Positions 627 to 62,257 of a stretch of 64,000 nucleotides of DNA are shown one piece after another. The notes beneath the pieces are model-generated. The model was not told where the DNA came from, made no database searches, and worked only from the letters and a program-made list of their open reading frames with translations. The DNA is from Candidatus Hodarchaeota archaeon (lineage in GTDB: Archaea > Asgardarchaeota > Lokiarchaeia > Sigyniarchaeales > SOKP01). A program made the translations under genes and the position numbers. The stretch lies in NCBI GenBank assembly GCA_048887165.1, contig JBHLJZ010000006.1, positions 8,210 to 72,209 of the forward strand, given 5' to 3'. How positions within the stretch are numbered: position 1 is the stretch's first letter; the number at the start of each line of letters is the position of its first letter.

Positions 627-2468
627 TTAATATAAATCTTTAATTACAAATTCTAATCCAAGTTCACTTAGTGTTTGTTCTGTAGGGTATCCATTTTCAG
701 GATTCCACCCTATAGCTTCACAGTATCCTTTAAAATCTGCTTTATAGTCGACTCCAACTGTCCTTTCAGGTATCTTATTTTTAGCAATATCAACTCCTTC
801 TCGTACTGTAAAAGCTTGTCTTAGGGTTTGGATTCTTACTCCTGCTCTTAATAATTCATCCATATTTATATCCCAACCTGTAGCTGATTTAATAAAATCA
901 GTTAAAGGATACTGTTGAAAGAAATATGCGAATTGACACAAACCTACACAACTAGTTGTCTGCCAAAGTGCAGAAGAAAGCTTTAAAGCTTCATTTCTTT
1001 CTTCTCCAGGGCGTTTAAATTTTTTAGGTAAGCTAAAACCTGGAAATAGTCCATCCGGTTTCAACATAGGTCCTCCCGCCATCATATCTAAACTTCCTGA
1101 TGTATGTCTACCAGGTGTAGGATCAAAAGCAAATGACATTCCCATAGACTTATAATATTTTGGTGAATGCATCCCTAATTCTTGACCCATAGAATGGATA
1201 GCATATTCAGCACTACCTTTCCCGATTTTTTCAGCAGCAATTTTGGACCCGTCAGCTAAAATATCACCAATACCTTCACGATTAATCACTTTTTTAACTA
1301 GTTCTATAATAGCTTCTGAATTTCCCCATTTTAATTTCAATCCTTCAGTATCATCTAAGCCCAGAATCCCATTTTCAAAGCATTCTATTGCAAATGCAAC
1401 TGTTCCACCAGCAGAAATCGTGTCTAAACCTGCTCTATTACATAAGTCATTTACAATGAAGATTGACTTTAAATCATCATTAAGTAACAAATGACCAAAA
1501 CTTGCACATGTTTCATATTCAGGTCGGTGTGTTTCTTCGAGATCAAGGTCTGGAATTTTCATTAAAGCACCGCATTGAACTGGACATCCAAAACAACCAA
1601 ATTTTCTGTCTTTATATTTAACGATTTCAATCCCAGTTAATTTACTTAAATTTTCCATTGGAAAATCTTCAGCAGAAGTTCCACCCCAATTTTTTATAGG
1701 AGCGTCTCCTGTTTTAGCTACCACATCATTCATCCATGGGGTTCCTAAATCTCTCCATAATTGTATTGAACCTGCTTCAGCTGATTTGATACCCTCATTA
1801 TATTGTCTTGTTAAATCAGTTAGAGTAATTTTATCAGCGATGGAAATTGACTGATTACCTTTTAAAACGATTGCTTTTAGTTTCTTTGATCCCATTACTG
1901 CTCCTAATCCTGATCTTGCCGCAATTCTTCCTTTATCATTGACTATTCCTGAAATCAATGATAATTTTTCCCCTGCTTGTCCTATACTAGCAAATTTTGC
2001 TCCAGCAAACTTTTCATTTAGTTTATTTTCGGTTTCTACTGCATCTAAACCCCATAGATCTGAAGCATCAACAATATTCTTCTCACCATCAATTATTGTT
2101 AAAATTTTTGGTATATCCGCCATCCCTTTAATTAAAATTCCATCATACCCGCATCTCTTAATTTCTGGACCAAAAAAACCTCCACAATGTGAATCACCCC
2201 AAGTTCCAGTTAAGGGAGATTTACCAGCAACCATATATCTACCAGTCAATGGTGCTATTGTACCTGTTAATAAACCTGGGAAAAAAGCTAATATGGATTC
2301 AGCTCCCAGCGGATCTGCTTTTGGAGGCATATTTTTATAAATATACTTCGCAGCTAATCCATAACCACCTAAATATTGACGATATAAATCTTCTGGAACT
2401 TCTTCTTCATTAAAAGCACCAGTAGAGAGATCAACCCATAAAATCTTGCCCATAAAACAATTAGTCAT
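627..2468 (-). CDS. aor: Aldehyde:ferredoxin oxidoreductase (tungstopterin AOR family)
   Basis: 613 aa. It has the N-terminal GKILWVDLSTG, the GLGAVMGSKKLKAIV motif, the CFGCPVQC (CxxCxxxC) 4Fe-4S ligand motif, and a length typical of the AOR family. Confidence 0.9.
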   Translation of the reverse strand: MTNCFMGKILWVDLSTGAFNEEEVPEDLYRQYLGGYGLAAKYIYKNMPPKADPLGAESILAFFPGLLTGTIAPLTGRYMVAGKSPLTGTWGDSHCGGFFGPEIKRCGYDGILIKGMADIPKILTIIDGEKNIVDASDLWGLDAVETENKLNEKFAGAKFASIGQAGEKLSLISGIVNDKGRIAARSGLGAVMGSKKLKAIVLKGNQSISIADKITLTDLTRQYNEGIKSAEAGSIQLWRDLGTPWMNDVVAKTGDAPIKNWGGTSAEDFPMENLSKLTGIEIVKYKDRKFGCFGCPVQCGALMKIPDLDLEETHRPEYETCASFGHLLLNDDLKSIFIVNDLCNRAGLDTISAGGTVAFAIECFENGILGLDDTEGLKLKWGNSEAIIELVKKVINREGIGDILADGSKIAAEKIGKGSAEYAIHSMGQELGMHSPKYYKSMGMSFAFDPTPGRHTSGSLDMMAGGPMLKPDGLFPGFSLPKKFKRPGEERNEALKLSSALWQTTSCVGLCQFAYFFQQYPLTDFIKSATGWDINMDELLRAGVRIQTLRQAFTVREGVDIAKNKIPERTVGVDYKADFKGYCEAIGWNPENGYPTEQTLSELGLEFVIKDLY

Positions 2469-8080: not shown

Positions 8081-8278
8081 CTTAAATTCCTAAATGTATC
8101 TTTAATTTTATGTATTTAATTCATAAACTTATAAAAGATACATAAAAGATTTTTGATTTAAAGTTAATTTTTTTAATCAAAGGTTTTAAAATAAAATAAT
8201 ACATTAAACTTCATATTAATTATAAAACCAAAAAGATTGGAGGAAATTTCAAAAAAAGAAAAGAAGGAATGATATGCA

Positions 8279-10255
8279 ATGGTAGAAACTAAGAACATTC
8301 AAGTTAATGAAAGCGATGATATCCGAATTTTCATTGCAATTTGTCAATGAGGCCTAAATGTTGCAGAAATTATTGACACTGTAGCCTTATCAGAGTTTTC
8401 GAAAACATTACCAAATGTTGTCGAGGCTGTAGACTATATATCATTATGTACTGAGCCAGGAGCAGAATTTATTAAAGAAAAAATGATTGAGAGTAATGCT
8501 AATCGATTAGTAGTAGCTTCTTGTACTCCAAAAACTCATGAACCGGTCTTTAAAAGTGTTCTTGAATCAATGGAGTTAGATCCATCGTTTTTAGAATTCG
8601 TTAATATCCGTGAACATTCAAGTTTCGTTCATAGACAAGATAAACAAGGAGCACAGAGTACCGCAGAAGACGCTATTCGATCTGGAGTTGCTAGAGCTGC
8701 ACTTTTAGAGAAAATTTTAATAAAAGAAGTTGATATAACTAAAAAAGCTTTAATTATCGGTGGAGGAGTTGCAGGCTTAACTGCTGCTGTAGATTTGGCT
8801 GATGAAGGGTTTGAGGTGTACTTAGTTGAGAAAAGTCCTACTATCGGTGGAAAAATGGCGATGCTCGATCGTACCTTTCCCACTGATGACTGTAGTATTT
8901 GAATATTAGGACCAGTTATGCTAGAAGCTGCAAGAACCCCAAGATTAAATCTTTACACCTATAGTGAAATTGAAGATATATCTGGATTTGTAGGAAACTT
9001 TAAAGTAAAAATAAGGAAGAAAGCAAGATATGTAAATAATGACTGTAATGGATGCGGTTCGTGCTTTGAAGTTTGTCCTGCTTACGGGTATGATGAATTT
9101 AATGAAGGGTTGAATCCCCGAAAAGCAATATATATCTCTTTTGCTCAAGCTGTACCTTCTATTGCTCAAATTGATATGACAAGATGTATAAAATGTGGAT
9201 TATGTGAAGGTGTTTGCGAAGTCGATGCAATAGATTTTGACCAACAAGATGAAATTGTAGAAATAGAAGTTGGTTCTATTGCTGTTGCAACTGGTTGGGA
9301 TGAATATAAACCAGAAATAGGATATTTAGGTTATAATGTTTATCCTAATGTTATAACTCAAATGAAACTAGAAAGAATACTAGCTCCAAACGGTCCAACA
9401 GTTGGACATCTTGTTAGACCGTCTGATGGAAAGAAGCCAGAAAAAGTCCTATTTATTCAATGTGTAGGTTCAAGAGATTTATCAAGACAAACCTACTGTA
9501 GTGCGGGAGTATGTTGTATGATTTCAATTAAAAATACTAAGCTCATTAAACAGCATTATCCTGAAATCGATATAAGTGTTGCGTATATGGATATAAGAGC
9601 TGCTGGTAAGAATTATGAGGAATATTTTACAGCGTCTCGAAAAGAGGGCATTAAATACATACGGACTAATGTTTCAAAAATTTATGAAGATCCTGAAACC
9701 CATAATCTCAAAGTCATATTACAAAATACATTAAGTAATACTGGATTAAAAGAGTACGAATATGACATGGTTGTGTTATCTGCTGCAATGCTTCCAGCGA
9801 GAGGAGTAGAGAAAATAGGAAAGATATTGAAACTTGAAACTAGTCAAGACGGATTTTTTAAGGAATTTCACGCACGTTTAAATCCAATAGATACAAAAAT
9901 CCCTGGAATTGTACTTGCTGGAGTTGCACAGGGACCTAAATCAATCGCAGAATCAATTGCTCAAGGTAGAGCTGCAGCATCTTCTCTTGCAAGATTAATG
10001 GGAAAAGATAAATATAGAATTTTGCTGATTCGAGCTACAGTTGATACTGAAAAGTGTGCAAAATGTGGATTATGTGAATTAAATTGTCCTTACGATGCTA
10101 TTCAAACTACAGCCGAAGGTGCTGTTGTTGATGAGATCTTATGTAGAGGTTGTGGCTCATGTTTAGCTAATTGCCCTTCAGAAGCTATAACACTACGATA
10201 TTATCGAGAACCTCAATATGAAAAACAAATAGATGCTATATTAGAGGAAATATAG
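8279..10255 (+). CDS. hdrA: Heterodisulfide reductase subunit A (HdrA), a selenoprotein with two in-frame UGA codons
   Basis: ATG at 8279. In-frame TGAs lie at 8348-8350 and 8900-8902. Translation reads MVETKNIQVNESDDIRIFIAICQ[U]GLNVAEIID and RTFPTDDCSI[U]ILGPVMLEAARTP. Both TGAs sit at Cys positions of the conserved HdrA CxCG and DCSxC motifs. It also has the FAD fold GGGVAGLTAAVDLADEGFEVYLVEK and several CxxCxxCxxxC(P) clusters. The ORF track splits it into 8483-8902 and 8918-10255, which are in the same frame. Confidence 0.85.
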
Positions 10256-10268
10256 AGAGGTGGTTTAT

Positions 10269-10721
10269 ATGGCAACAAAAGATAAAGTAAAGATTTTAGC
10301 ATTCATGTGTTGGAAGTGAGGATATGGTGCTGGGGACATGGCGGGAACTATTCGTGCTCAATATCCTGCAACAATTAGACCGATTCGAATAAACTGTACT
10401 GGAAGAGTTACTCCTGGCTTAATGATGCGAGCCATTGGTAAAGGTGCTGATGGTGTAATTGTCGCAGGATGATATGAAGGAGAATGTGATTATGAAACAG
10501 GTAATCTAATAGCGGCTAAGAATGTTGAATTCACACGTGAAATATTAAAAACTGCTGGAGTTTCACCTGAAAGAATACAATTATTTCACTGCAGTGCCGC
10601 AGAAGGACAAAAATTCCAAGAAGAAGTAACTAGAATAACAGAAATTATTGAAAATTTGGGTAGCAATCCTTTAAAAAAATCTTCAGATTCAGAAGATAAG
10701 AAAAAGAAAAAAACCGAATGA
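10269..10721 (+). CDS. mvhD: MvhD/VhuD-type hydrogenase delta subunit (HdrA electron-transfer partner), a selenoprotein with two in-frame UGA codons
   Basis: ATG at 10269, terminal TGA at 10719-10721, in-frame TGAs at 10317-10319 and 10470-10472. Translation is MATKDKVKILAFMCWK[U]GYGAGDMAGTIRAQYPATIRPIRINCTGRVTPGLMMRAIGKGADGVIVAG[U]YEGECDYETGN. This matches the MvhD pattern (CxWCxY..D.AG, R..CTGRV, GADGV.V.GCxxGxCxY) with U at Cys positions. It is absent from the ORF track because of the TGAs. Confidence 0.85.
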
Positions 10722-10744
10722 ATGAATCTTATGAAAAAAAATTA

Positions 10745-10790
10745 GTCGTAAGATGACAAACCATAAAGCAATGGTCTCGGAAAAATGTTT
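10745..10790 (+). promoter_or_regulatory. Candidate SECIS-like hairpin in the 3' UTR of hdrA-mvhD
   Basis: This is the only relatively G/C-containing hairpin in the 3' flank. The parts are AUGA (10753-10756), stem ACCAU (10760-10764) / AUGGU (10771-10775), an A-rich loop AAAGCA (10765-10770), and a 3' GA (10780-10781). That GA could form tandem sheared G.A pairs with G10755/A10756. Folded by eye only, and helix I is weak. Confidence 0.3.
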
Positions 10791-10944
10791 TAAAACTTAT
10801 TTTTTGATTTTCAGATTATAATCCTATTAATAATATAATAAAAAATTGGTAAATCTTTTTAAACTCGTGATTCTAGTTAAATCCTAATTTTAATTTCATA
10901 GAAATTAAAAGACTATTGAAAATTAAATAAAAAAGTGAAAAAAG

Positions 10945-11595
10945 ATGGGTGAAGTTACAAGTACAACAGAAAAGATTACAGCACCAAAATTACTTGCTTT
11001 CATTGGTATGCTCTATACTCTTGCCTTAGGAATTACTTATTTCTATGCTGCTGCAAATCCCCTGAACATTCTTTGGGGAATAATTTGCTTAGTTATTGCT
11101 TTCTTAATCTTTGTAGCATTAGAACTGGTCGATTTTGGACCAGTTAAAATTCCTTATCAATGGTGGCTAATACTTATCTTTGGTGTAGTTTTATTGTTAT
11201 TTGCACTCTTTTTAGGAGGTAGTTATTTTCCTGCAATTCTCCTATTATTAGCAGCCTTAATTGAAGTAATAATGGAGAAGAAACCATATAAGGCTTCAAA
11301 AATGGTTCTTTTAGTCGGTATCGGTTTTTCAATCTATGAATGTTTCGATTTATTCATATCTGGAGGAGCTATTCCTATTTTAAATGGAGTTTTCGGTTTG
11401 ATTTTACTTATTATTTTACTTCTGATCTTATTTGATGTCGTAGATTTCAAAGTCATAGATTATTCCTGGTGGTTAGTTCTACTAATAGGATTTGTCATCT
11501 TTATTTGGGTATCTCCTTTAGCAACAGGTGTTCTTACTGGATTTGGAGGAACTCTTATATTAATAGCATTTGTACTTATAATGTTGGCATTATAA
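10945..11595 (+). CDS. Integral membrane protein with an internal duplication
   Basis: 216 aa, almost entirely hydrophobic. The two halves share ELVDFGPVKIPYQWWLILIFGVV and LFDVVDFKVIDYSWWLVLLIGFV. Confidence 0.55.
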   Translation: MGEVTSTTEKITAPKLLAFIGMLYTLALGITYFYAAANPLNILWGIICLVIAFLIFVALELVDFGPVKIPYQWWLILIFGVVLLLFALFLGGSYFPAILLLLAALIEVIMEKKPYKASKMVLLVGIGFSIYECFDLFISGGAIPILNGVFGLILLIILLLILFDVVDFKVIDYSWWLVLLIGFVIFIWVSPLATGVLTGFGGTLILIAFVLIMLAL

Positions 11596-11730: not shown

Positions 11731-13038
11731 ATGGGTAAAAATTTACTAGTCAAAGCTGAAAATCAATTTCTAAAAGCTGAAAAATTATTTAAAGCCAGAC
11801 AATTTAAGAAAGCAGGGAAACTTTTCCATAATTCGGGGCAAGGTTTTCTAGAAATTCACAAGTATGAATCAGCTAGAGATAGCTTCATTAATTCTGCTAA
11901 ATCTTTTTTAGAATCTGAGAAATTTGATACTGTTCTTAAACTATATAGGTTAGCCGCTAGAGCATCCTTGCATAATGAAAGGTATCTAGAAGCTAATGAA
12001 TTGTATCGTAATGCTCTTAATTATATCTCAAATTTAAAAAGTGCTAACGATCAAAATGCTCAATATTTATTATTTTCAATATTATCATACCTATGCCTAT
12101 TTATAAAGGCTCAACAAGAAGAAGCTTTGGATTTTTTAAAAAGGATTCAAAAAAAAGTTGATAATCAATATTTTAAGGAAAGTCCTTTAATAAAAATTGC
12201 AACGAATTTAACTATTGCACTAAGAGACAAAAATAAAAGTTCAATTGAGAGAGTAAAGGATAATATAAATGATTATAAATTCAATAATGTTGAAACAGAC
12301 CTTTTAAGGAAAGCTCTGATGATAGCAGAATGTCAAACTTCTCCATTAACGTCATTTGAATTAGACAAAAAGCAATATACTACGAATGATAAGATTAAAC
12401 TCAAATTGGATGTTAAAATGAAACCATTACAAACTATTTTTGAAGATGGATTTTATAACTATAAAACTGAAAATATTGAAATAAATAAAGTCAGCATTCA
12501 TCTATCAGATAATCTTACTGTAAGCAATAAACCTAATTTTCCGCTCAAACTAGAATTAACTAATGATTTTGAAATAAATTATGTAATTAAGCCTCACTTT
12601 CAGCTTGATAAACCCTATATCGGTCCTATGGATCTAATTTTTGAATTAAATGATAATTTGTTATTTATATATACAACAAATATTATTGAACCTAATATTC
12701 TCTCTCCTCCTGCAAGTCTATCTGTCTCAATTAAAAATCTAAGACCTCCGTTAATTGGACAAACATTTCCTTTAGAGATCCTCGTTGAAAATAAAAGCGA
12801 AGGTGAAGCATTAGATGTAAATATTGATGTTGAATTTCCTGATGAATTGAAAATAATGAGAGGAACTACAAATAAACAAATATATTCTCTTAGGTCTAAT
12901 GAAGATTTGAAATGGGAAACAAATTTAAAACCCACAGAAGCAGGAGATTATGTAATAAAATTTAATATTAAATTTACCGATCCTGATCAGAATATGATTG
13001 AAGAAGTTAAAGAGTTTCCATTTTCCATAAAACTCTAG
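11731..13038 (+). CDS. Cytoplasmic protein with an N-terminal TPR-like helical repeat region and C-terminal beta-sandwich (CARDB/DUF11-like) domains
   Basis: 435 aa with no signal peptide. The first ~200 aa are helical hairpin repeats (A..F..AAK.F type). The C-terminus, PLIGQTFPLEILVENKSEGEALDVNIDVEFPDELKI...TEAGDYVIKFNIKF, resembles CARDB-type Ig-like domains. Confidence 0.45.
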   Translation: MGKNLLVKAENQFLKAEKLFKARQFKKAGKLFHNSGQGFLEIHKYESARDSFINSAKSFLESEKFDTVLKLYRLAARASLHNERYLEANELYRNALNYISNLKSANDQNAQYLLFSILSYLCLFIKAQQEEALDFLKRIQKKVDNQYFKESPLIKIATNLTIALRDKNKSSIERVKDNINDYKFNNVETDLLRKALMIAECQTSPLTSFELDKKQYTTNDKIKLKLDVKMKPLQTIFEDGFYNYKTENIEINKVSIHLSDNLTVSNKPNFPLKLELTNDFEINYVIKPHFQLDKPYIGPMDLIFELNDNLLFIYTTNIIEPNILSPPASLSVSIKNLRPPLIGQTFPLEILVENKSEGEALDVNIDVEFPDELKIMRGTTNKQIYSLRSNEDLKWETNLKPTEAGDYVIKFNIKFTDPDQNMIEEVKEFPFSIKL

Positions 13039-15910: not shown

Positions 15911-17413
15911 ATGCCCTTAACTCCTAAAGCTATTTATAAAGATCTCGAAAGTAATGAATTGGATAAATCGTCTGCTATTGAACTGTTAATTGCTTTAATA
16001 GAGAATGCTGAAAATATTAATACCCGAATAGAAAGTATTGAAATATTAGAAAAGGTTAATGTAAAAGATAAAAGGGTTTTCAGTGTTTTAGAAAATCTAT
16101 TTATCTCCGACAGTAATGATAAAGTAAGATGCATTTCCTCTAAAGTGCTAAAAAATCTTTTTTTAGATGAAGCAATTCCTGTATTAAAATGGGGATTGCA
16201 GCATGAAAAATCTGTTAGTCCTCTAATCGCCATAATAACAAATTTAGGTGAAATTAATACTAAAAAAGCAAAATCAGTTCTGCTTAAAAAAATCCAAGAG
16301 ATTAATAAAAAGAAATACAAATACAACGTTAAAAATTTAATTGAACAGAAAACTTTCGATCAGCTTTCAAATAAAGAAATAGCTGAGATATTAATAAACT
16401 ATTATGTTATATCTTCATTAAAATTGAAATTTGGCTATGTTAAATTTGAATACGATAGAAATGGTACTATTATAAATCTCGACTTATCTAATGTAGAATA
16501 TCAAGGTTTAGGATTGAATAAATTAACGAATTCTCTTGAATCGATCCTATCTCTTTCTTTTCTTAAGAAATTGGATCTTAGCAATAATCAGATAAAAAAT
16601 CTACCTGAAAATATCAAAGAATCGAAAATTTTAGAGTATTTTGATATGAGTTTTAATGATCTATCTCGACTTCCAGAATCCATTTCATCATTACCAAACC
16701 TTAAAGTGTTAAATTTGAAATCTAATCATATACGATATATCCCAGAATCAATAGGTTCGCTCGTTAACCTTGAAGTGTTAATTCTGAGGGATAATTATTT
16801 AAATAAACTACCTAATGCGATTGGATTACTTTCAAGTTTAAAGCTTTTGGATCTTCATCATAACCGACTAAATCAACTTCCTCAAAATTTTAATTCTTTA
16901 GCATCTCTAATTGAGCTTGAATTAGGTTGGAATAAATTGGAAACCGTACCAAATAATTTAAAAGGACTTATTTCTATAGAAAAGTTAAATCTTGGACGAA
17001 ATCGATTAAATGAAATTCCTAATTGGTTAGGATCCTTATATAGACTCAAAGAGCTAAATCTTTATGATAATAATCTGAAAATAGTTCCTAATTCTCTCGG
17101 TAACTTATCCCACATTCAAGTAATAAATCTTAGAAATAATAAATTTAGTGACTTACCTAATTGCTTTAAAACTCTTTCTACTCTTAAGAAATTGAATTTA
17201 AGTTGGAATAAGATATCATCGCTTCCTAATTGGATTGACTCTTTATCTTCTTTAGAAGAATTAAATCTCTGGGCTAATAATTTAAAAGAAATTCCCGAGT
17301 CAATCGCGTCACTGCCAAATTTAAAAACTTTATATTTAAATTTCAATAAAATAGATGAGTTATCTAAACCTTTACGAGCTTTAAAAGATAGAGGAGTTAC
17401 TATTAAAATTTAA
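15911..17413 (+). CDS. HEAT-like repeat + leucine-rich repeat protein (paralogue 1 of 4)
   Basis: 500 aa. The N-terminal ~200 aa contain HEAT/PBS-lyase-like hairpins (ISDSNDKVRCISSKVLKNLF). About 12 23-residue LRRs follow (LxxLxxLxLxxNxLxxLPxxIGxL). The conserved C-terminal cap is LRALKDRGVTIKI. Confidence 0.85.
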   Translation: MPLTPKAIYKDLESNELDKSSAIELLIALIENAENINTRIESIEILEKVNVKDKRVFSVLENLFISDSNDKVRCISSKVLKNLFLDEAIPVLKWGLQHEKSVSPLIAIITNLGEINTKKAKSVLLKKIQEINKKKYKYNVKNLIEQKTFDQLSNKEIAEILINYYVISSLKLKFGYVKFEYDRNGTIINLDLSNVEYQGLGLNKLTNSLESILSLSFLKKLDLSNNQIKNLPENIKESKILEYFDMSFNDLSRLPESISSLPNLKVLNLKSNHIRYIPESIGSLVNLEVLILRDNYLNKLPNAIGLLSSLKLLDLHHNRLNQLPQNFNSLASLIELELGWNKLETVPNNLKGLISIEKLNLGRNRLNEIPNWLGSLYRLKELNLYDNNLKIVPNSLGNLSHIQVINLRNNKFSDLPNCFKTLSTLKKLNLSWNKISSLPNWIDSLSSLEELNLWANNLKEIPESIASLPNLKTLYLNFNKIDELSKPLRALKDRGVTIKI

Positions 17414-17478: not shown

Positions 17479-17718
17479 ATGGCAAATAAATTAAAAATTA
17501 TTACTGATGAAAATTTATGCACTGGTTGCAGAAATTGCCAACTAATATGTTCTTTTAACATCAGTGGAAAATTTTCAATAGAAAAAGCCTATATTAAGAT
17601 TGAAAATGCTTATGCCCTTCTCCCCCATATTAAGTTTCTGGACGAATGTACTAAATGTGGACTTTGTGTGCAATATTGTCTATACGGAGCTCTTAAGGAG
17701 GAAGGTGATTACACTTAG
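17479..17718 (+). CDS. Small 2x[4Fe-4S]-type ferredoxin, AOR-associated
   Basis: 79 aa with CTGCRNCQLIC and CTKCGLCVQYC. Its stop overlaps the GTG start of the downstream AOR gene (TAGTG). Confidence 0.8.
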   Translation: MANKLKIITDENLCTGCRNCQLICSFNISGKFSIEKAYIKIENAYALLPHIKFLDECTKCGLCVQYCLYGALKEEGDYT

Positions 17719-19619
17719 TGAACTTTTTCGGATTCACAGGTAAAATTTTAGACGTTAATTTAACTGACAATAAGATTATCTCATATCAAGAAGATATTGA
17801 GGACCTAAAGCGATTCATAGGAGGAATGGGGATGAATTGTCTTTTAGGCAGTCGAGTTTTGAAACCGGAGAGCGATCCGCTTTGTCCTGAAAATTATATT
17901 ATTTTGGGAGCAGGTCCTTTAGTAGGAACAATTACACCAGGTGCTTCTCGCATTGTTGGATTATCAAAATTTCCTGCAACTGGAGCAATAGCTAATTCAT
18001 GTGGAAGCATGAGTTTTGGTTTAAACCTAAAACTCTCAGGTTATGATCACATAATAATTTCAGGTAAATCAGAAAAACCATGCTATTTAGTGATTTTAGA
18101 TGATTATGTTGAAATTTTAGATGCTAAACAATTCTGGGGTAAAGACATTACTGAGACTACCAATTATTTCTGGAAAAAATATAAAAATAGTAGTGTAATT
18201 GCTATAGGTCAAGCAGGGGAAAATCTAGTTTATGGTGCTTTAACATTAATAGATAAGACATCAACATTTGGTCGAGGGGGATTAGGAGCAGTTATGGGTT
18301 CAAAACTTCTTAAGGGAATAGTAGTTAAAGGAACCGAAGATATAGAAATAGCAAATCCTCAACAATTTAAGAATTTATATGAAAAACAAATTAAGAGAAT
18401 AAAAGATTATCCCCATCGAGAATCATGGATTGAATTGGGAATGCTAAGAAATCTACCAGTAAACATAATGTTATATGCTAAAGGGGAAAAGACTAAAGCA
18501 AGAGAAACTAGTGAAAAATTTTATATAAAAAAGCTAAAAAAAAGACGTTTGGCTTGCCCATCTTGTCCAATGGGAGACAAAGACATCCTTGAAATTAAAG
18601 ATGGTGAATTTAACGGATTAATTACTTACACATCATCAGTTATTAATCCATTTATGATGCTAATAGTTGATGGCATAGACACCTCATACCAGGCAGTAAA
18701 AATTTTCGACTTAATTAGTAGATACGGATTAGATTCACTTACAATAACTTCATTGTTTGATTATTTAAGTAGATTATATGAAAAGGGTATTCTTACTAAA
18801 GAAAGGGTTGGCTTTGAATGGAATCGAGATTACAAAACTTTAACGAAATTAATTGAAATAATAGTGCATAGAGAAGGATTTGGGAATATATTAGCTAATG
18901 GTTGGAAAGATTTAGCTGAAATTAATCAAAAATTTGCGGAAGAAATGTATATAGTTAAAGGTTTAGATATTATTTGGGAACCTAGACTTACAAAACTAGG
19001 AACAATGGAATTTGAGCAAGTAGTAAATCCTAAAGGTGCTCACGTGGCTTCTGGCGGTTCACCAACATATGTTGGTGCGGCGAGTAGTATAGAAAAATTT
19101 AAAACACATTTTAAAAGAATGGGAATACCGGATTATGCTGTTAATCGTATTTTTTCTCCGCCTCGCGAAGCGATGGGTGTGAATGTTGGTAGATTAACCC
19201 GATATTCTGAGGATTGGTATACTGTTTTAACTAGTCTAGGATTATGTGTTCGAGCACAGATGAATCGTTTTTGGGGAATAGAACTAGTTACTGAGTTTTA
19301 TAATGCTGTAACTGGCTTTGATCTAAATTCTAGAGAATTAATAAAATCTGCTGAGCGTTGTTGGAATTTACTAAAGCTCATGAATATTAAGGCTGGTTTT
19401 TCTCGAAAAGATGATAAATTTCCCCAAGGTTGGTTCAAATTGCTAAAGTATGGCGATCAGAATCTCGAATTTAAAGATTTTTTTGGGGGGACAATTATCA
19501 CTAAAGAAATTGCTGATCAATTACTTGATGATTATTATGATGAGAGGGGTTGGAACAAAGACACTGGCTTACCCTCTCATGAAAAGATAAAAGAATTAGG
19601 TTTGGAGAAAAATCTTTGA
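17718..19619 (+). CDS. Aldehyde:ferredoxin oxidoreductase family protein (divergent paralogue)
   Basis: 633 aa with GKILDVNLTD, GLGAVMGSKLLKGIVVKG and an AOR-family C-terminal domain. The cluster motif is CPSCPMGD (CxxCxxxD) instead of CxxCxxxC. Confidence 0.85.
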   Translation: MNFFGFTGKILDVNLTDNKIISYQEDIEDLKRFIGGMGMNCLLGSRVLKPESDPLCPENYIILGAGPLVGTITPGASRIVGLSKFPATGAIANSCGSMSFGLNLKLSGYDHIIISGKSEKPCYLVILDDYVEILDAKQFWGKDITETTNYFWKKYKNSSVIAIGQAGENLVYGALTLIDKTSTFGRGGLGAVMGSKLLKGIVVKGTEDIEIANPQQFKNLYEKQIKRIKDYPHRESWIELGMLRNLPVNIMLYAKGEKTKARETSEKFYIKKLKKRRLACPSCPMGDKDILEIKDGEFNGLITYTSSVINPFMMLIVDGIDTSYQAVKIFDLISRYGLDSLTITSLFDYLSRLYEKGILTKERVGFEWNRDYKTLTKLIEIIVHREGFGNILANGWKDLAEINQKFAEEMYIVKGLDIIWEPRLTKLGTMEFEQVVNPKGAHVASGGSPTYVGAASSIEKFKTHFKRMGIPDYAVNRIFSPPREAMGVNVGRLTRYSEDWYTVLTSLGLCVRAQMNRFWGIELVTEFYNAVTGFDLNSRELIKSAERCWNLLKLMNIKAGFSRKDDKFPQGWFKLLKYGDQNLEFKDFFGGTIITKEIADQLLDDYYDERGWNKDTGLPSHEKIKELGLEKNL

Positions 19620-19722: not shown

Positions 19723-21222
19723 ATGGAATTATCTCCAGAAATTATTTATAAAAGTTATATTAATAATGAATTAGATAAGACATCAACTATTAATCAATTA
19801 ATTTCATTAATAGATAATAGTGATGATCTCCTTACTCGAGTTAAAAGTATTAAAACCCTAAATAAAATCAAACCAACAGATGATCGAGCATTTCATGTTT
19901 TAGAAAATTTGCTTGTCTCAGATTCACATAAAGAGATCAGATATGAAGCGGCTAGAGGTATAAAAAACAACTTTTTAAATAGATCCTTAGAACCGATAAA
20001 ATGGGTGTTTGCCCATGAAAAATCACTTAAATGTCTTTTAATTATTACTGAAATTATTGGAGAATTCAACACCTCATTTTCCAAATCTCTTTTAATTGAA
20101 AAAATAAACCAGTTTGATAATGATCAATTCAAAAAAAGCATAGAAGATTTAGGTAAAAAAGATAATTTAGAATATTTATCAGGAAAAAAATTATCAAAAA
20201 TTGTTCAAAATCAATTAATTATCGATTATTTAGAAAATAAGTTTGGTCAGGTTAATTACAAACTACACAATGGGATAATAACTCAATTAGATCTATCTGA
20301 CATTAGCACTCATATTTTTGGATGGCGAGTTCTTAAGAAATTTCCTTTTTTTTTGAAATATTTGAATTCAATTAAGATTTTAGATTTAAAATTTAATAGA
20401 TTATCAATTATCCCTAAATCTATAGGGAATCTTAATTCTCTAGTATATTTAGATTTGAGTTATAACAAAATTGAAAATCTACCTTCTTCAATAGGATTTT
20501 TAACATCACTAGAATTCTTAAATTTAAGATATAATAAATTAAGCAAATTACCACACTCAATAGGGGATCTTAAAAAGCTAAAAAAGTTAGACTTAAGATC
20601 AAATAATTTAAAAACTCTCCCCAAAACAATTAAAAAGTTATCTCAACTAAAGATTCTTGATTTACATGGTAATAAGTTAGATAATATAATCTCAAACTTT
20701 AAAGGGCTCTCCTCTCTTGAAGAATTAGAATTAGGTTTAAACAATTTGACTAAATTACCTGAAAGTTTAAAATCAATAAAATCATTAAAAAAACTTGGGC
20801 TCGGAGGAAATAGATTAAAAAGACTCTCAAATTGGATTTGTTCCTTTAAAAAGCTCGAAATTTTACAACTATATGATAATAAACTTATAGAACTTCCTAA
20901 AACTATAGGAAACTTAAGTTCACTTAAAACCTTAGTCTTATGGAATAATAACTTAGAGTCATTACCAAAATCATTTAGTTCACTATATAATCTTAAATCT
21001 TTGAATTTAAGTTGGAATAACTTTACTAAATTGCCTGAATGGATAGAATCGCTAAGATCATTAGAAGAATTGAGTTTATGGGGAAATAAATTAAATAGTC
21101 TTCCACAATCAATGGCAAATCTAAACTCGCTAAAAATTTTGGATTTAAATTTTACTTTTATTATCGATATTCCTGACTTCTTAAGAGATTTAGAAAAGAA
21201 AGGATTAGTGATATATAAATAG
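19723..21222 (+). CDS. HEAT-like repeat + leucine-rich repeat protein (paralogue 2)
   Basis: 499 aa with the same architecture as 15911-17413 (VSDSHKEIRYEAARGIKNNF, about 12 LRRs, C-terminal LRDLEKKGLVIYK). Confidence 0.85.
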   Translation: MELSPEIIYKSYINNELDKTSTINQLISLIDNSDDLLTRVKSIKTLNKIKPTDDRAFHVLENLLVSDSHKEIRYEAARGIKNNFLNRSLEPIKWVFAHEKSLKCLLIITEIIGEFNTSFSKSLLIEKINQFDNDQFKKSIEDLGKKDNLEYLSGKKLSKIVQNQLIIDYLENKFGQVNYKLHNGIITQLDLSDISTHIFGWRVLKKFPFFLKYLNSIKILDLKFNRLSIIPKSIGNLNSLVYLDLSYNKIENLPSSIGFLTSLEFLNLRYNKLSKLPHSIGDLKKLKKLDLRSNNLKTLPKTIKKLSQLKILDLHGNKLDNIISNFKGLSSLEELELGLNNLTKLPESLKSIKSLKKLGLGGNRLKRLSNWICSFKKLEILQLYDNKLIELPKTIGNLSSLKTLVLWNNNLESLPKSFSSLYNLKSLNLSWNNFTKLPEWIESLRSLEELSLWGNKLNSLPQSMANLNSLKILDLNFTFIIDIPDFLRDLEKKGLVIYK

Positions 21223-21255: not shown

Positions 21256-22635
21256 ATGGAATTAACACCTAAAAAAATTTACGAGGATTTCTTTAACAAA
21301 ATTATTGATAAAGTCTCAGCAATTGAACAATTATCAACTTTAATTGAAAACAGTAACAATATTAATATCCGAGTCAAAAGCATTGAGTATTTAGAAAAAA
21401 TTGGAAAAATTGGTGACAATTCAAATAATAAAGAAGAGAATTTATTTAACCTATTCGAAAACTTGTTGATTTCAGATTCAAGTGATAAAATACGAAATAT
21501 TGCTGCTACTTTTCTAAAAACTAACTTCCTTGAAAAATCATTTGAACCAATGATCTGGGCACTTCATCATGAATCATCACCCAATTGCTTAAAAGTTATT
21601 TTTGAATCACTTATTGGTATCATAAATCAATCAATAAAGAAAGAAGATGATATCTCAAAAGTAAATTTATTTAATAAAATAAAACAAATAAATGAAAAGG
21701 CTTTTAGAATAGATATTGAGTTATGGTGCGAAGGAAAACAAGAGGATGAGATTACAATCAAAGAAATAGCTGAAATTTTAATTAATTATTTCTGTTTAAT
21801 TTATTTACAGAAAACTGTATGGCGTTTAAAATTTTCAATTGAAAATTGCAGAATTGTCCAATTAGATTTTATTTTTAAGGGATTAACTAAATTGCCAGAA
21901 GCTATAAAGCACCTCAATTCTCTTAAAGTCTTAATATTGAGGTATAATCAACTTACTATCCTTCCAGATTGGATTGGTTCTTTAAATTCTCTAGAATCGT
22001 TAAATCTCAATGTAAATAACATAATAGAACTCCCAAAAACTATTGGTTCCCTAACTTCTCTCAAAGAGTTGCTCTTATGGAAGAATGAACTTAATTTTCT
22101 ACCAGACTCAATTGGATTAATGATTTCTTTAGAAAAACTGAATCTAAGATTAAATCAATTAATTGAATTACCCTCAAATTTTGGAAATCTATCATACCTT
22201 AAGGAATTAAATCTTCATGACAATAAGTTGGTCTCTATTCCAGAAACGATAGGTTTACTCTCCTCCTTAGAAATACTTAATCTAAGTTGGAATGAATTAA
22301 AAAAGATTCCAAATACTATAGGGGCACTATCTTCGTTGAAATCTCTAGATTTAGAAAGGAACGAATTATTATCCATCCCGTTATCAATTGGAAATTTAAG
22401 TTCATTAAAAGTGTTAAATCTTAGTGATAATAAGTTAAAAAAAATCCCAAAAACTCTTGGAAACCTGAAAAATTTGGAAATTTTAAACCTTTCCAGAAAT
22501 AATATTACTGAATTGCCTGAAACAATAAAGTTATTAACTTCACTAAAAGAAATTTATTTAGGAGAAAATAATTTTAAGAGTATTCCGAGAGATTTAAAAG
22601 AATTAGAAAGAAAAGGTTTAAAGATTTTTTATTGA
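21256..22635 (+). CDS. HEAT-like repeat + leucine-rich repeat protein (paralogue 3)
   Basis: 459 aa with the same architecture (ISDSSDKIRNIAATFLKTNF, AEILINYF linker motif, about 10 LRRs, C-terminal LKELERKGLKIFY). Confidence 0.85.
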   Translation: MELTPKKIYEDFFNKIIDKVSAIEQLSTLIENSNNINIRVKSIEYLEKIGKIGDNSNNKEENLFNLFENLLISDSSDKIRNIAATFLKTNFLEKSFEPMIWALHHESSPNCLKVIFESLIGIINQSIKKEDDISKVNLFNKIKQINEKAFRIDIELWCEGKQEDEITIKEIAEILINYFCLIYLQKTVWRLKFSIENCRIVQLDFIFKGLTKLPEAIKHLNSLKVLILRYNQLTILPDWIGSLNSLESLNLNVNNIIELPKTIGSLTSLKELLLWKNELNFLPDSIGLMISLEKLNLRLNQLIELPSNFGNLSYLKELNLHDNKLVSIPETIGLLSSLEILNLSWNELKKIPNTIGALSSLKSLDLERNELLSIPLSIGNLSSLKVLNLSDNKLKKIPKTLGNLKNLEILNLSRNNITELPETIKLLTSLKEIYLGENNFKSIPRDLKELERKGLKIFY

Positions 22636-30288: not shown

Positions 30289-31248
30289 ATGGCTTCATCT
30301 CCCAAGAAAATTTATGAAGATTATATTGAAAATTATGTAAATAGAACTATTGCTATAGAGTTATTGATTTCAATAATTGAAAATTCAGAGAATGAATCTA
30401 ATAGGTTTGAAGCTATTGAAATTTTAGATAAAATCAAGGCAAGTAGTCCGGAGATTTTTAAATTATATGAAAATTTGATGATTAGTGACTTAAATTCTAG
30501 AATCAGAGCACGTGCTATTTTATATCTTCCAAAATATTTCGTAGAAGAAGCTTTACTTCCATTAAAATGGGCAATTAGACACGAAGATTCATATGAATGT
30601 TTAATCAATATTATTAAAACTCTTGAAAACTACTATCCAAAGGAATCCCATTCAATCTTTTTAGAAGAAATAAAAAAAATCAGGAAGATTCGCTATTTAA
30701 ATTATGAAAAAAGGTATGAGAATAGAAAATTCAAAAAAGCATTAAAAAAGTTAATAAAATCGAGTCAAATTAAAAATTTTTCAAAAAACAAATTAGCTGA
30801 AATTTTAATCAATTATTTCACCATTCAAAATCTCTCTAGTAAATTCCCTAATATGTTTTTTGAGTTAGAATCGCAAAATGCTTTAGTAAGGGAATTAGAT
30901 TTATCTGATTACTTAGAGCATGAAGTTAAAGGAACTCCTTGGGGCTGGAAGAATAATATTCAATCAATTTCAGAAATAACTGGATTGGAAAATTTAAAAA
31001 ATCTAAAAAGTTTAGATTTATCTAATAATCTAATAAACGATATAAAAGATTTAATCGAATTAAAGAATTTAACTCATCTAATTTTGTCAAATAATAAGAT
31101 TAGTCATCTTGAAAATCTTGACTATATAAAAAAATTACCAAATCTTAAAGTTATAGATCTTAGTGGAAATGATATTGTTAATTTTTTTAATCCTGAAGAC
31201 TTTAAGACAAAAACTAGAATTCTCGTAAGAAGATCACTTATAGAATAG
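30289..31248 (+). CDS. HEAT-like repeat + short LRR protein (paralogue 4, SDS22-like 22-residue LRRs)
   Basis: 319 aa. The N-terminus is homologous to the other three (PKKIYEDY...AIELLISIIENSENESNRFEAIEILDKI, ISDLNSRIRARAILYL, AEILINYF). About 4-5 LRRs follow (LKSLDLSNNLINDIKDL...). Confidence 0.75.
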   Translation: MASSPKKIYEDYIENYVNRTIAIELLISIIENSENESNRFEAIEILDKIKASSPEIFKLYENLMISDLNSRIRARAILYLPKYFVEEALLPLKWAIRHEDSYECLINIIKTLENYYPKESHSIFLEEIKKIRKIRYLNYEKRYENRKFKKALKKLIKSSQIKNFSKNKLAEILINYFTIQNLSSKFPNMFFELESQNALVRELDLSDYLEHEVKGTPWGWKNNIQSISEITGLENLKNLKSLDLSNNLINDIKDLIELKNLTHLILSNNKISHLENLDYIKKLPNLKVIDLSGNDIVNFFNPEDFKTKTRILVRRSLIE

Positions 31249-31281: not shown

Positions 31282-32628
31282 TTATTCTATTAACTGTGTT
31301 TTCCCAGTACCCCATATTCCAAGAGCTTTACCTAATTCTTCATGATCCTTGGCATATTTACTAACCGAAATACCTTGCATAACCGCATCAATTGCTTGTC
31401 TAAACGCCTTTGCACCAGAAATGGGACCATCGGGATGACTATGAATACCTCCTCCACTTCCTATAAGTATGTCCAATCCAGCTTCTTTTATACATTTTTC
31501 TACCATACCTTGCGTTATTCCACCACTAGGCATTGGTAAGGTAGGTTTTATATGTTGGAATGGATACCTAAGAGCTTTTAAATTTTGTTCATATCTTTCT
31601 TCAAGAATTTCTGCCTTTCCATAAGGGGCGGGGATTACAACAGTATCTGCTCCACACATCCTAGGGAATTTTGCAAGTACTAACATCGAAGTCAGTCCAG
31701 TCCACTCACCTCCAATATATGCCCCACCAAAATCCATATGCCCTAAAATCGGTACTTTTATTGAAGGATCTTCGGCAATCGCTCTCAATGCTTCAAAACC
31801 TGAAGTTAGATAATTAAGCATTAATGCATTAGCTCCAAGTTCTATCATTTTATCAGCATATTCAAACATTTCGGGAAACTTTGTGGTAATATTAATAGTA
31901 TAAAGTGTTTTTTCTCCTTTTTCTGAATCTGCTCTGTCAACAGCTTCCATTACCTTCACAATTCTATCTTCTAACCTGTTAAAAGAAGGATCCGAAATCA
32001 ATTCGTCATCTTTCACAACATCACAGCCACCAACAGCTGCTTTATATACTAAATCAGCAGCAACTTCACAAGTGTGACCTGTACATGGTTTAACCATATT
32101 GTTTAATAAAGGGCGCTCTGGTATTTTCATAAGCTTTCTTATACCATCAATTCCAAATTTGGGTCCTTTAAATTCTTCAAGATATTCTTTTGGAAATGCT
32201 AAATCAACTAATTTTAAACCATGAGTTAAACTAATATTACCAATTACTGTAGTAAGAAGCATTGGGATTCCCATTCCTTTAATATTTACAATAGGGAAAC
32301 CAATCTGAGCGAAATAATATCGTTCTTTCACATCCTTTGGTATAACGTATTCATAATGAGGTAATTCATACACTCCAAGTACTCTTGCTACATGATATTT
32401 TCTAACTTCTTCGGTTTCTGCAGGAACTCTAACCCATGTTCCTGTTGATTGTTCTATTGCTGCAAATCTAGATAAGTAATTAACATTCATTCCTTTTGGT
32501 CTTTTAATAATGAAGCTTGCAATTATATATTTCTCCAAATCAATGCCGTCTAAGCCAATAGCTTCTGGGATATCAAAATATTTTTCTGTACTGTCCATAA
32601 TTATATCAAGAAAGTGTAATTTTTTCAA
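31282..32628 (-). CDS. RuBisCO large-subunit family protein, probably a RuBisCO-like protein (form IV-like) rather than a carboxylase
   Basis: 448 aa. EQSTGTWV, GNIS, VKDDE and the C-terminal GSGGGIHSHPDGPISGAKAFRQAIDAVMQG are very close to archaeal RbcL. However, VKPCTG replaces KPKxG, GHMDFGG replaces GHRAMH, and VVIPAPYG replaces LHVGT. The comparison is from my memory of form III sequences. Confidence 0.7.
   Translation of the reverse strand: MKKLHFLDIIMDSTEKYFDIPEAIGLDGIDLEKYIIASFIIKRPKGMNVNYLSRFAAIEQSTGTWVRVPAETEEVRKYHVARVLGVYELPHYEYVIPKDVKERYYFAQIGFPIVNIKGMGIPMLLTTVIGNISLTHGLKLVDLAFPKEYLEEFKGPKFGIDGIRKLMKIPERPLLNNMVKPCTGHTCEVAADLVYKAAVGGCDVVKDDELISDPSFNRLEDRIVKVMEAVDRADSEKGEKTLYTINITTKFPEMFEYADKMIELGANALMLNYLTSGFEALRAIAEDPSIKVPILGHMDFGGAYIGGEWTGLTSMLVLAKFPRMCGADTVVIPAPYGKAEILEERYEQNLKALRYPFQHIKPTLPMPSGGITQGMVEKCIKEAGLDILIGSGGGIHSHPDGPISGAKAFRQAIDAVMQGISVSKYAKDHEELGKALGIWGTGKTQLIE

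Positions 32629-59101: not shown

Positions 59102-62257
<3,156 letters not shown>

Follow-up and report, generated by a model that had tools for sequence, protein, structure and literature searches.

How is an hdrA gene read when two TGA codons interrupt its frame, and does it still give one full-length protein? This question was raised by a locus of an Asgard (Loki-type) archaeon, which we analysed within a window of 64,000 nucleotides (the whole stretch of DNA studied, with a GC content of 30%). An earlier note, made from the DNA letters, had proposed that both TGAs encode selenocysteine (Sec). The features of the locus are collected in Table 1.

Table 1. Coordinates of genes, UGA codons and RNA elements at the hdrA-vhuD locus (positions in the window)
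Feature	Position	Strand	Details
hdrA, complete CDS	8279..10255	+	658 codons and TAG stop (10253-10255); two predicted Sec (UGA) codons
UGA, predicted Sec24 of HdrA	8348..8350	+	C-Q-U-G motif of N-terminal domain; aligned to Cys13 of 5ODC
UGA, predicted Sec208 of HdrA	8900..8902	+	canonical HdrA Sec site, D-C-S-I-U; aligned to Cys197 of 5ODC and X (Sec197) of 9sfi_A
vhuD (mvhD/flpD)	10269..10721	+	150 codons and UGA stop; two predicted Sec codons
UGA, predicted Sec17 of VhuD	10317..10319	+	aligned to X (Sec) in 9sfi_K, Cys in 9sw2_D and 8rvu_F
UGA, predicted Sec68 of VhuD	10470..10472	+	aligned to X (Sec) in 9sfi_K, Cys in other MvhD chains
Closing helix I, 5' strand	10714..10717	+	CCGA; within last vhuD codons
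UGA, true vhuD stop	10719..10721	+	directly adjoins SECIS core
lokiSECIS	10722..10756	+	AUGA 10722-25; 9-bp stem 10726-34 with 10746-54; 11-nt loop 10735-45; GA 10755-56
Hairpin III	10760..10775	+	ACCAU / loop AAAGCA / AUGGU; between SECIS 'GAC' and helix I 3' strand
Closing helix I, 3' strand	10777..10780	+	UCGG; covariation, RNAalifold, MFE folds, paralogue set

The hdrA reading frame

The earlier note had described a single hdrA frame of 658 sense codons that starts at the ATG at 8279, and all its coordinates proved exact. Between this ATG (8279-8281) and the terminal TAG the two TGAs are the only in-frame stops, and they lie where the note had placed them, in IFIAICQ[U]GLNV (codon 24) and FPTDDCSI[U]ILGP (codon 208). 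It was also right that the list of open reading frames breaks the gene into two pieces of the same frame, 8483-8902 and 8918-10255. A look-up of the 445-aa fragment in public assemblies gave no exact record, whereas the closest assembly, GCA_048886165.1, has an identical DNA ligase.

The product matched the solved HdrA chain 5odc_A over its full length (query 14-655, E=1e-202), and end-to-end alignments were also obtained with 9sfi_A of M. maripaludis (E=4e-196), 8rvu_a and 7bkb_A. Pfam detected Fer4 and FAD/NAD-binding domains. Across the structure-chain alignment, the orthologues and Pfam, the four-domain architecture, the cluster-ligand cysteines and the FAD-binding fold of HdrA were all present; two CxxCxxCxxxC pairs, the C395/C407/C412/C413 set and the N-domain Cys were invariant in orthologues. 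Judged by this homology, hdrA has as its predicted product a full-length HdrA-type flavin/iron-sulfur electron-bifurcating subunit.

The use of TGA elsewhere in the window was determined from 34 Pfam-supported genes. Their 13,782 sense codons included no in-frame TGA, and five of the genes terminate at TGA; the in-frame TGAs of hdrA are therefore not due to chance. The same counts bear on a genome-wide reassignment of TGA, such as the Trp and Gly assignments of codes 4 and 25. Such reassignment is known in some AT-rich lineages, and the genome studied here is AT-rich as well. However, with TGA missing from the sense codons of all 34 genes and in use as a terminator, with the TGAs of the locus aligned to Cys and not to Trp or Gly, and with vhuD itself ending in TGA, its probability is practically nil. 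No other selenoprotein candidates were found in the window: the remaining open reading frames with internal TGAs either overlap a genuine gene of the other strand or have the TGA at their true stop.

Genes for tRNA-Sec, EFSec/SelB, PSTK, SepSecS and SPS are not encoded within the 64 kb, so the Sec machinery is assumed from related Asgard genomes, for which it is documented (PMC4989117, PMC11227280). The only tRNA found in the window (42564-42667), overlooked by ARAGORN, was considered as tRNA-Sec and rejected, as its anticodon is CGA and not UCA; with a long variable arm and an intron it is a type II tRNA-Ser.

Conservation of the HdrA UGA codons

Our comparison covered 80 orthologous Asgard loci and a second set of 41 paralogous HdrA with 43-47% identity. 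TGA occupied codon 24 in 75/75 orthologues and 40/41 paralogues, and codon 208 in 78/78 and 41/41, respectively. The neighbouring codons drift synonymously in the orthologues, whereas the TGA itself is constant. At codon 57, a third Cys column, 27 orthologues have TGA and 49 have TGT or TGC, an alternation that, as read from the codons, is the classic picture of a putative Sec/Cys exchange. Sec and Cys also interchange at codon 309 of the paralogues (15 U versus 26 C). Across the orthologous loci and the paralogues there was not one TGA on a non-Cys column.

The earlier note had assigned both positions to Cys residues of cluster-binding motifs. The correspondence holds for both in 5ODC, and the U at codon 208 also meets the modelled Sec of 9SFI (Table 1); of the two, it is Cys197 for which cluster binding has been documented (PMC9012536). 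Sec197 of M. maripaludis HdrA was modelled in cryo-EM density in structure 9SFI (PMC13518236). The motifs around the two sites recur in the supplementary Lokiarchaeia sequences of Huang 2024 (PMC11227280; X = Sec), ICQXG 28 times and DDCSIXILGP 198 times.

If hdrA were a pseudogene or contained sequencing errors, the TGAs would be nonsense mutations or miscalls. Mechanical calling of open reading frames does split the gene, and one base change turns TGT or TGC into TGA. Against this, the two TGAs recur at the frequencies given above in independently assembled orthologues and in the distant paralogues, and none of the orthologues stops at them. Their frames are intact and their protein is strongly conserved, with synonymous drift at flanking sites and neither frameshifts nor relaxed constraint. 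In addition, the four TGAs of hdrA and vhuD all lie on Cys/Sec columns, and a dedicated SECIS follows downstream. We give decay or miscalling next to no probability, in line with the earlier note, which had argued from the placement of both stops on Cys positions that they are not nonsense mutations.

A truly split gene would yield a 23-aa peptide and products of ~139 aa and 445 aa that assemble into a functional HdrA. There is a same-frame ATG after each TGA (8483 and 8918), and in some HdrA variants of ANME archaea Cys197 is found on a different chain from the N-terminal domain (PMC9012536). However, this arrangement would lose exactly the conserved Cys columns, together with residues 24-68 (re-start at 8483) and 208-213, and the codons from each TGA to the next ATG are conserved as HdrA in all orthologues. 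The second break would interrupt the part of the protein that aligns with the thioredoxin-reductase-like, FAD-binding domain of 5ODC, and the SECIS would be left without purpose. We consider a split gene very improbable, and favour a single HdrA chain read through both UGAs.

On the 3' side of both HdrA UGAs, synonymous-site entropy lay in the 57th-62nd percentile and 60-nt folds had z values of about 0. A bacterial-type or SRE-like element beside the UGAs was ruled out by these ordinary values. As neither local RNA structure nor synonymous constraint adjoins the HdrA UGAs, the 3' SECIS is the sole candidate signal.

The downstream gene vhuD

The earlier note had missed the gene downstream of hdrA, vhuD, with two further predicted Sec codons, as well as the SECIS that the two genes would share. 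A spacer of 13 nt separates the hdrA stop from the vhuD start. The vhuD product matched PF02662 (FlpD) along the whole profile (positions 1-123 of 123, E=1.3e-42) and has its conserved Cys/Sec residues. Solved VhuD/MvhD chains matched the product too (9SFI VhuD, E=1e-35), and on this homology it is the predicted [2Fe-2S] partner of HdrA.

Both Sec positions of VhuD were U in 74/74 orthologues. In 9SFI, the M. maripaludis structure, Sec ('X') has been modelled at three of the four TGA sites of HdrA and VhuD. The VhuD motifs also occur in the Huang 2024 sequences (PMC11227280; X = Sec), FMCWKXGYG 50 times and VAGXYEGE 42 times.

VhuD of the orthologues ends in TGA (17), TAA (21) or TAG (36). A UGA stop of vhuD beside the SECIS agrees with the minimal-distance rule (PMC4989117), and we propose that it escapes recoding because it abuts the element. 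HdrA ends in TAA or TAG in 80/80 orthologues and 41/41 paralogues; by the same proposal it must do so because a UGA at this place would be read through.

When the HdrA N-terminal domain was compared with VhuD by hhalign, a probability of 21% and E=0.001 were obtained, with C22/U24/C57/C82 of HdrA on C14/U17/C43/U68 of VhuD. That the two are homologous is a lead only.

The SECIS element behind vhuD

The element begins 0 nt past the vhuD stop. All nine stem pairs form, one of them as G-U, and the apical loop of 11 nt is A-rich (AAAAAAAUUAG). A strict SECIS pattern matched once on both strands of the window, as compared to 0 matches in 200 shuffles. Compensatory changes were found at 9/9 stem pairs in a set of 72 sequences, and [AG]UGA and [GA]A are conserved on the flanks of the stem (alignment A1). 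Our RNA model (R1) gave a single match in the window and one per related locus.

The SECIS was found once in 76/77 orthologous loci, and also behind each paralogous VhuD whose downstream sequence could be examined. In one locus, L062, all TGAs are retained and the SECIS is absent; the element may truly have been lost there, or the assembly may be at fault. Among 148 related loci there was no other selenoprotein SECIS type.

The element has the features of the lokiSECIS, or Asgard type I eSECIS-like element: an AUGA...GA core, a 9-bp stem, an 11-nt loop with adenines first and (A)G last, a position beside the last stop, and one copy per HdrA-VhuD pair. The Rfam SECIS families gave no match at the gathering threshold, and none at E<=10 on 10650-10900. 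The element resembles a eukaryotic SECIS without being a member of the Rfam SECIS families.

A three-helix junction around the SECIS

Covariation supports a conserved three-helix junction at 10714-10780 that encloses the SECIS hairpin. The CCGA strand of the closing helix I varies hardly or not at all in 72+54 sequences, both where it is coding and where it lies past the stop. Helix I was predicted by RNAalifold and MFE folds and shows one C-G to G-C swap (locus L078). Hairpin III covaries: in the 72-sequence set one of its pairs is AU in 40, UA in 16, UG in 8 and CG in 2. The independent paralogue set had compensatory changes at 5/5 pairs of this hairpin, which is also present in MFE folds. 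Its loop is often GNRA-like or xAGCx, and its 3' strand leads directly to the closing helix. Hairpin III, with its flanking 'AUGA...GGA', was itself considered as the SECIS and rejected; this role falls to the 9-bp hairpin before it.

Helix I and the second hairpin are unmentioned in the main text of PMC4989117, and the conserved junction may be a new finding. It is possible, though in our judgement doubtful, that the SECIS of the HdrA-VhuD operon is a three-helix junction that goes beyond a simple kink-turn hairpin, with a near-invariant CCGA/UCGG helix around the AUGA...GA hairpin and a covarying second hairpin. Such a junction could be a docking platform for an archaeal SECIS-binding factor, and could also be the reason why a single element can act on UGAs as far as 2.4 kb upstream, beyond the cistron boundary. 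It may correspond to helix I of the eukaryotic SECIS and to the 'short extra stem' in the VhuD SECIS of Methanococcales.

Proposed recoding mechanism

Our comparative analysis indicates that the four UGAs of the hdrA-vhuD operon are very probably recoded to Sec via one shared SECIS behind vhuD. The two genes would form a bicistronic selenoprotein operon, with Sec at positions 24 and 208 of HdrA and 17 and 68 of VhuD; from the 13-nt spacer we infer that they are co-transcribed. A single eukaryote-like SECIS with an AUGA...GA kink-turn-type core would be the signal for all four UGAs, with a reach of 252, 405, 1,822 and 2,374 nt across the cistron boundary. Sec would then take the place of Cys at redox or cluster-proximal positions of both proteins. 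The frame, the match of TGAs to Cys/Sec columns, the constancy of TGA, the SECIS with its covariation and the default use of TGA as a stop were observed in the sequences; Sec insertion itself, the trans-acting factors (tRNA-Sec, EFSec and a SECIS binder) and the chemical role of each Sec we infer. Recoding at such a distance (2.4 kb) and past a stop/start junction is not known from experiments in any archaeon.

The UGAs might instead be read as Cys or another near-cognate amino acid, or be read conditionally, with termination dominating under scarce selenium. In eukaryotes, Cys can be inserted at Sec-UGA codons. Methanococcus, according to PMC11097638, changes to Cys isoforms under Se limitation, which also speaks for such a reading. 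Yet TGT or TGC would be a cheaper way to encode Cys, and TGA is invariant at two columns across deep paralogues, which therefore points to selection for what only UGA plus SECIS delivers. A further argument against it is the cryo-EM structure from M. maripaludis, where Sec is the modelled residue at three of the four equivalent positions. We judge it improbable, and retain Sec as the most probable reading of all four UGAs.

Comparison with known systems

Lokiarchaeota HdrA-VhuD tandem selenoprotein genes with one common 'lokiSECIS' were described by Mariotti et al. 2016 (PMC4989117), who do report multi-Sec HdrA; the earlier note had cited them for Lokiarchaeota selenoproteins with multiple Sec. 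The pair studied here resembles theirs in its layout (vhuD follows hdrA on the same strand after a very short gap), in a multi-Sec HdrA that includes the canonical ~200 site together with two Sec in VhuD, in a SECIS downstream of vhuD only (AUGA, 9-bp stem, 11-nt loop AAAAA...AG, GA(C)), and in the stop codons, UAA/UAG for HdrA and possibly UGA beside the SECIS for VhuD. HdrA has two predicted Sec here and up to four among five positions there; otherwise nothing substantive differs.

The Asgard catalogue of Huang, Xiao & Zhang 2024 (PMC11227280) contains the same motifs, and the element found here would be its type I 'eSECIS-like', common to hdrA/frhD. Family-specific lower-stem pairs are given there only for frhA and selD, and no highly conserved nucleotides around key regions, whereas CCGA...UCGG is nearly invariant here for hdrA/vhuD. 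The HdrA-VhuD shared-SECIS arrangement is already known, and the protein-level finding adds no new knowledge because it was published in 2016 (PMC4989117) and its motifs were catalogued in 2024 (PMC11227280).

HdrA (Sec197) and VhuD (two Sec) of Methanococcales/Methanopyrus have their Sec columns in common with HdrA 208 and both VhuD sites of this locus, whereas methanococcal HdrA has Cys at the CxC site that corresponds to U24. The methanogen lineages with Sec-HdrA/VhuD have the euryarchaeal GAA_A-bulge SECIS type (PMC11227280). The methanococcal enzyme acts in CoM-S-S-CoB reduction, coupled to HdrBC and a hydrogenase. In contrast, no hdrB/hdrC or hydrogenase genes are adjacent to hdrA-vhuD here, and hdrB/hdrC are not syntenic in the 80 loci. 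To our knowledge Asgard archaea are not methanogens, so the substrate is uncertain. HdrBC may be encoded elsewhere in the genome, and was found in the Loki genome (Mariotti et al. 2016, PMC4989117).

Eukaryotic type I SECIS have a kink-turn core (AUGA/GA), an AAR apical motif and the order helix I, internal loop, helix II. The element shares with them the AUGA...GA core, the unpaired adenines that open the apical loop, the site 3' of the gene and the predicted distant action on several UGAs; with helix I, it also has the two-helix layout around the core. It differs in its shorter upper stem (9 bp), in a complete extra hairpin in the 3' side of the 'internal loop', and in the two cistrons that it would serve. 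As in vertebrate Selenoprotein P, a comparison made in PMC4989117, several UGAs of one mRNA would be recoded from a far-downstream 3' position. SelenoP has two SECIS and a monocistronic mRNA, whereas here one element would act on four UGAs in two open reading frames.

Implications

For annotation, hdrA would be one 658-aa selenoprotein gene and not a pair of fragments, and vhuD would encode a 150-aa selenoprotein. Such genes are routinely truncated by gene callers, as was also the case for hdrA of Methanocaldococcus (PMC12054007). The locus would be a further example of the most extreme SECIS reach known, with four UGAs in two cistrons and distances of up to 2.4 kb. It belongs to the archaeal lineage closest to eukaryotes and has a eukaryotic-looking SECIS, yet no SBP2 is known in archaea (PMC4989117, PMC9723677). 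Should the junction around the SECIS turn out to be both functional and undescribed, the search for the archaeal SECIS-binding factor would have a concrete RNA to work with, as would reporter assays of recoding over long distances.

Probable selenocysteine recoding of TGA codons in hdrA and vhuD

Reading the frame from the ATG at 8279 to the TAG at 10253-10255 gave 658 sense codons, and the only in-frame stops within it were two TGAs, at codons 24 and 208. A single hdrA gene with two internal TGAs, split by the ORF track, had been proposed in the earlier note, and it was borne out at the same coordinates; the mechanical ORF list gives 8483-8902 and 8918-10255. Among the 34 Pfam-supported genes of the window (GC content 30%) internal TGA was found in 0 of 13,782 sense codons, and the terminators were TAA (26), TGA (5) and TAG (3). 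Since TGA is absent from the interior of these genes and ends five of them, it is an ordinary stop in the host, and the two TGAs inside hdrA stand out as exceptions. In the same frame, another TGA occurs at 8270-8272 (UGAUAUGCAAUGG), three codons ahead of the ATG, in a context that orthologues share ('..DUYAM..'). As no start codon lies upstream of it before the next TAA or TAG (in-frame stretch from 8195), this TGA is part of the 5' leader, not an extra selenocysteine (Sec, U) codon.

The hdrA stop is followed after 13 nt by vhuD, a second probable selenoprotein gene that was absent from the earlier note. Its codons 17 and 68 are also TGA and align with Sec in 9sfi_K, the VhuD chain of M. maripaludis, and with Cys in other MvhD structures.

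Features of the hdrA-vhuD locus, its SECIS region and the genes downstream
Feature	Position	Strand	Description
hdrA TGA, codon 24	8348-8350	+	context ...IFIAICQ*GLNV...
hdrA TGA, codon 208	8900-8902	+	context ...FPTDDCSI*ILGP...
vhuD/MvhD/FlpD, 150 residues	10269-10721	+	PF02662, E=1.3e-42
vhuD in-frame TGA, codon 17	10317-10319	+	'X' (Sec) in 9sfi_K
vhuD in-frame TGA, codon 68	10470-10472	+	'X' (Sec) in 9sfi_K
helix I, 5' strand CCGA	10714-10717	+	from alignment of 72 orthologous sequences; few bases, then AUGA-hairpin-GA-C
vhuD true stop, TGA	10719-10721	+	abuts SECIS core
lokiSECIS	10722-10756	+	AUGA-AUCUUAUGA-AAAAAAAUUAG-UCGUAAGAU-GA, directly 3' of vhuD stop
second short hairpin	10760-10775	+	few bases 3' of SECIS GA-C
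helix I, 3' strand UCGG	10777-10780	+	from alignment of 72 orthologous sequences
216-aa multi-pass membrane-like protein	10945-11595	+	no Pfam match; syntenic with hdrA-vhuD in 28/80
435-aa protein	11731-13038	+	no Pfam match; syntenic with hdrA-vhuD in 71/80

With Cys written in place of both TGAs, the HdrA product matched the solved structures 5odc_A (E=1e-202, query residues 14-655), 9sfi_A (E=4e-196), 8rvu_a and 7bkb_A end to end. Both TGAs fall on Cys columns, as had been claimed: codon 24 aligns with Cys13 and codon 208 with Cys197 of 5ODC. In 9sfi_A the column of codon 208 holds residue 'X', which is the selenocysteine Sec197 of M. maripaludis HdrA; this residue has FAD on one side and the N-terminal [4Fe-4S] cluster A3 on the other, and the authors suggest that it forms a selenylsulfide (PMC13518236). 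Another paper describes Cys197 as ligating the N-terminal cluster in the partner chain of HdrA (PMC9012536). The remaining cluster cysteines (two CxxCxxCxxxC pairs and the C395/C407/C412/C413 set) were invariant in orthologues.

A genome-collection scan provided 80 orthologous loci with 79-92% protein identity, every one of them in a MAG of Asgard archaea (Promethearchaeota and related); the frames of these loci were read through TGA and columns are given in window numbering. TGA was present at HdrA codon 24 in 75/75, at codon 208 in 78/78 and at both VhuD Sec columns in 74/74, and synonymous drift was unhindered beside the invariant TGAs (Gly25 as GGT, GGA, GGC or GGG; Ile209 as ATA, ATT or ATC). 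Codon 57 was variable (27 TGA, 37 TGT and 12 TGC, i.e. 27 U vs 49 C) and codon 82 was TGA in one of 77; non-Cys columns within the gene held no TGA, and all 80 hdrA genes ended with TAA or TAG. A metagenome scan added 68 loci of a paralogous VhuD group, with upstream HdrA 43-47% identical to that of the window. Here TGA occupied column 24 in 40/41 and column 208 in 41/41, the stop was TAA or TAG in 41/41, and column 309, the third Cys of the first ferredoxin CxxCxxCxxxC motif, was Sec/Cys-variable (15 U vs 26 C). The HdrA of the window has Cys at codons 57, 82 and 309.

Judged from these alignments, the TGA conservation bears the mark of Sec codons under selection, and Sec/Cys exchange is ongoing in the HdrA family. 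The same pattern in orthologues and paralogues excludes that the TGAs reflect pseudogenisation of hdrA, sequencing error or code reassignment, and together with the Cys columns it supports the selenocysteine interpretation of the earlier note. When the HdrA N-terminal domain and VhuD were compared as profiles, the match was weak (probability 21%, E=0.001); it puts C22/U24/C57/C82 on VhuD C14/U17/C43/U68. If this match holds, the Sec-variable columns of the N-terminal domain would all be counterparts of the VhuD Cys/Sec set, which we regard as a lead only.

In the genes reported by Mariotti et al. 2016 (PMC4989117), HdrA has several Sec residues, the canonical site being among them in every case, and VhuD invariably comes next on that strand; a single lokiSECIS follows VhuD and occurs nowhere else, and UGA never serves as the HdrA stop. 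The hdrA-vhuD locus of the window has this configuration, and the paper had been cited accurately in the earlier note. Huang et al. 2024 catalogued 1,439 Asgard selenoproteins, and their supplementary Lokiarchaeia sequences (Sec as X) contain the motifs of our locus: ICQXG (28), DDCSIXILGP (198), FMCWKXGYG (50) and VAGXYEGE (42) (PMC11227280). Given both matches, the finding is correct but already known.

Gene neighbourhood

Neither in the window nor in the orthologous loci were hdrBC or hydrogenase genes adjacent to hdrA-vhuD. The genes conserved around the pair were an OMP decarboxylase upstream (66/80) and the uncharacterised 435-aa protein downstream. Elsewhere in the window we observed a cluster of leucine-rich-repeat proteins and two Arf/Rag-family small GTPases (15911-17413, 19723-21222, 21256-22635, 30289-31248 (+); 34601-35644 (+), 43775-44707 (-)), a content typical of Asgard archaea and consistent with the placement from related loci. 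Also present were two aldehyde:ferredoxin oxidoreductase genes, a RuBisCO large-subunit homologue and a GH2 beta-galactosidase (627-2468 (-), 17718-19619 (+), 31282-32628 (-), 59102-62257 (-)), and a 1,443-aa ORF at 36843-41174 (-) without a Pfam family at E<=1e-5. The DNA ligase of the window is identical to one from MAG assembly GCA_048886165.1, which marks the organism as uncultured.

SECIS element and probable recoding

The element behind vhuD fits exactly the lokiSECIS definition of Mariotti et al. 2016, with AUGA, a perfect 9-bp stem, an 11-nt loop (adenines first, AG last) and GA. The hairpin is the MFE structure, the strict pattern matched only once on both strands of the window vs 0 in 200 shuffles, and compensatory changes were found at 9/9 stem pairs in the alignment of 72 orthologous SECIS-region sequences. 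One orthologous locus (L062:5305-5440, JAHLWP010000001.1) was the only one with all HdrA and VhuD TGAs and no SECIS. Its sequence diverges immediately past 'AAUGA', and ~90 nt separate vhuD from the start of the conserved downstream gene; the cause is a genuine loss or deletion, or else an assembly artefact.

The single SECIS would serve the two vhuD UGAs, 252 and 405 nt upstream of it, as well as the two in hdrA, one cistron further back, at 1,822 and 2,374 nt. The UGA stop of vhuD abuts the SECIS core. This fits the proposal in the literature that UGA and SECIS must be some minimal distance apart, and also the rule that hdrA never ends in UGA. Synonymous variation and local folding revealed no local helper element beside the HdrA UGAs: variation there was average (57th-62nd percentile) and folding equalled that of shuffles. 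Synonymous variation dipped only at the hdrA 5' end and in the last ~20 hdrA codons, just before the vhuD start, which would fit translation-initiation signals and possibly coupling of the two cistrons. From sequence, we infer Sec insertion, co-transcription of hdrA and vhuD, and the trans-acting factors.

No Sec machinery is encoded within the 64-kb window. Its only detectable tRNA (42564-42667, +; Rfam 43.6 bits, missed by ARAGORN) carries an intron of ~21 nt within its anticodon loop, and its variable arm is long; the anticodon CGA identifies it as tRNA-Ser and rules out tRNA-Sec.

Extended SECIS structure

In the alignment of 72 sequences the SECIS hairpin sits within a larger conserved arrangement (10714-10780), in which a closing helix (helix I, CCGA/UCGG) encloses it together with a second short hairpin. 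This three-helix layout was predicted independently by RNAalifold and was also seen in single-sequence MFE folds of the window and six divergent orthologues. A covariance model built from the alignment found a single element in the window (88.7 bits), one in 76/77 orthologous loci reaching far enough, and one behind each paralogous VhuD with downstream sequence covered. The second hairpin covaried at one pair in orthologues (AU 40, UA 16, UG 8, CG 2) and showed compensatory changes at 5/5 pairs in the independent paralogue set, with ~91% of cells paired; its loop often takes a GNRA-like (GUGA/GCGA/GCAA) or xAGCx form. The 3' strand of this hairpin leads straight into the closing helix. The latter was almost invariant in orthologues, with one C-G to G-C swap (L078), and invariant in paralogues. 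CCGA was kept both within the last vhuD codons and past the stop, which places the constraint on RNA and not on protein. Lone folds gave a closing helix with exactly two hairpins in 96/123 unique elements vs 82/2,460 shuffles, a biased comparison as the elements were located by anchor motifs.

Four publications (Mariotti 2016, Huang 2024, Sun 2021 and a review from 2026) do not describe the extension in their main texts; family-specific lower-stem pairs were given for frhA and selD only (Huang et al. 2024, PMC11227280). We consider the extended structure very probably real, and the chances that it was previously undescribed are about even. A functional tie to long-range, multi-cistron recoding is a tentative and rather doubtful idea. 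Separate from the selenoprotein finding, the extended SECIS architecture is a moderate lead.
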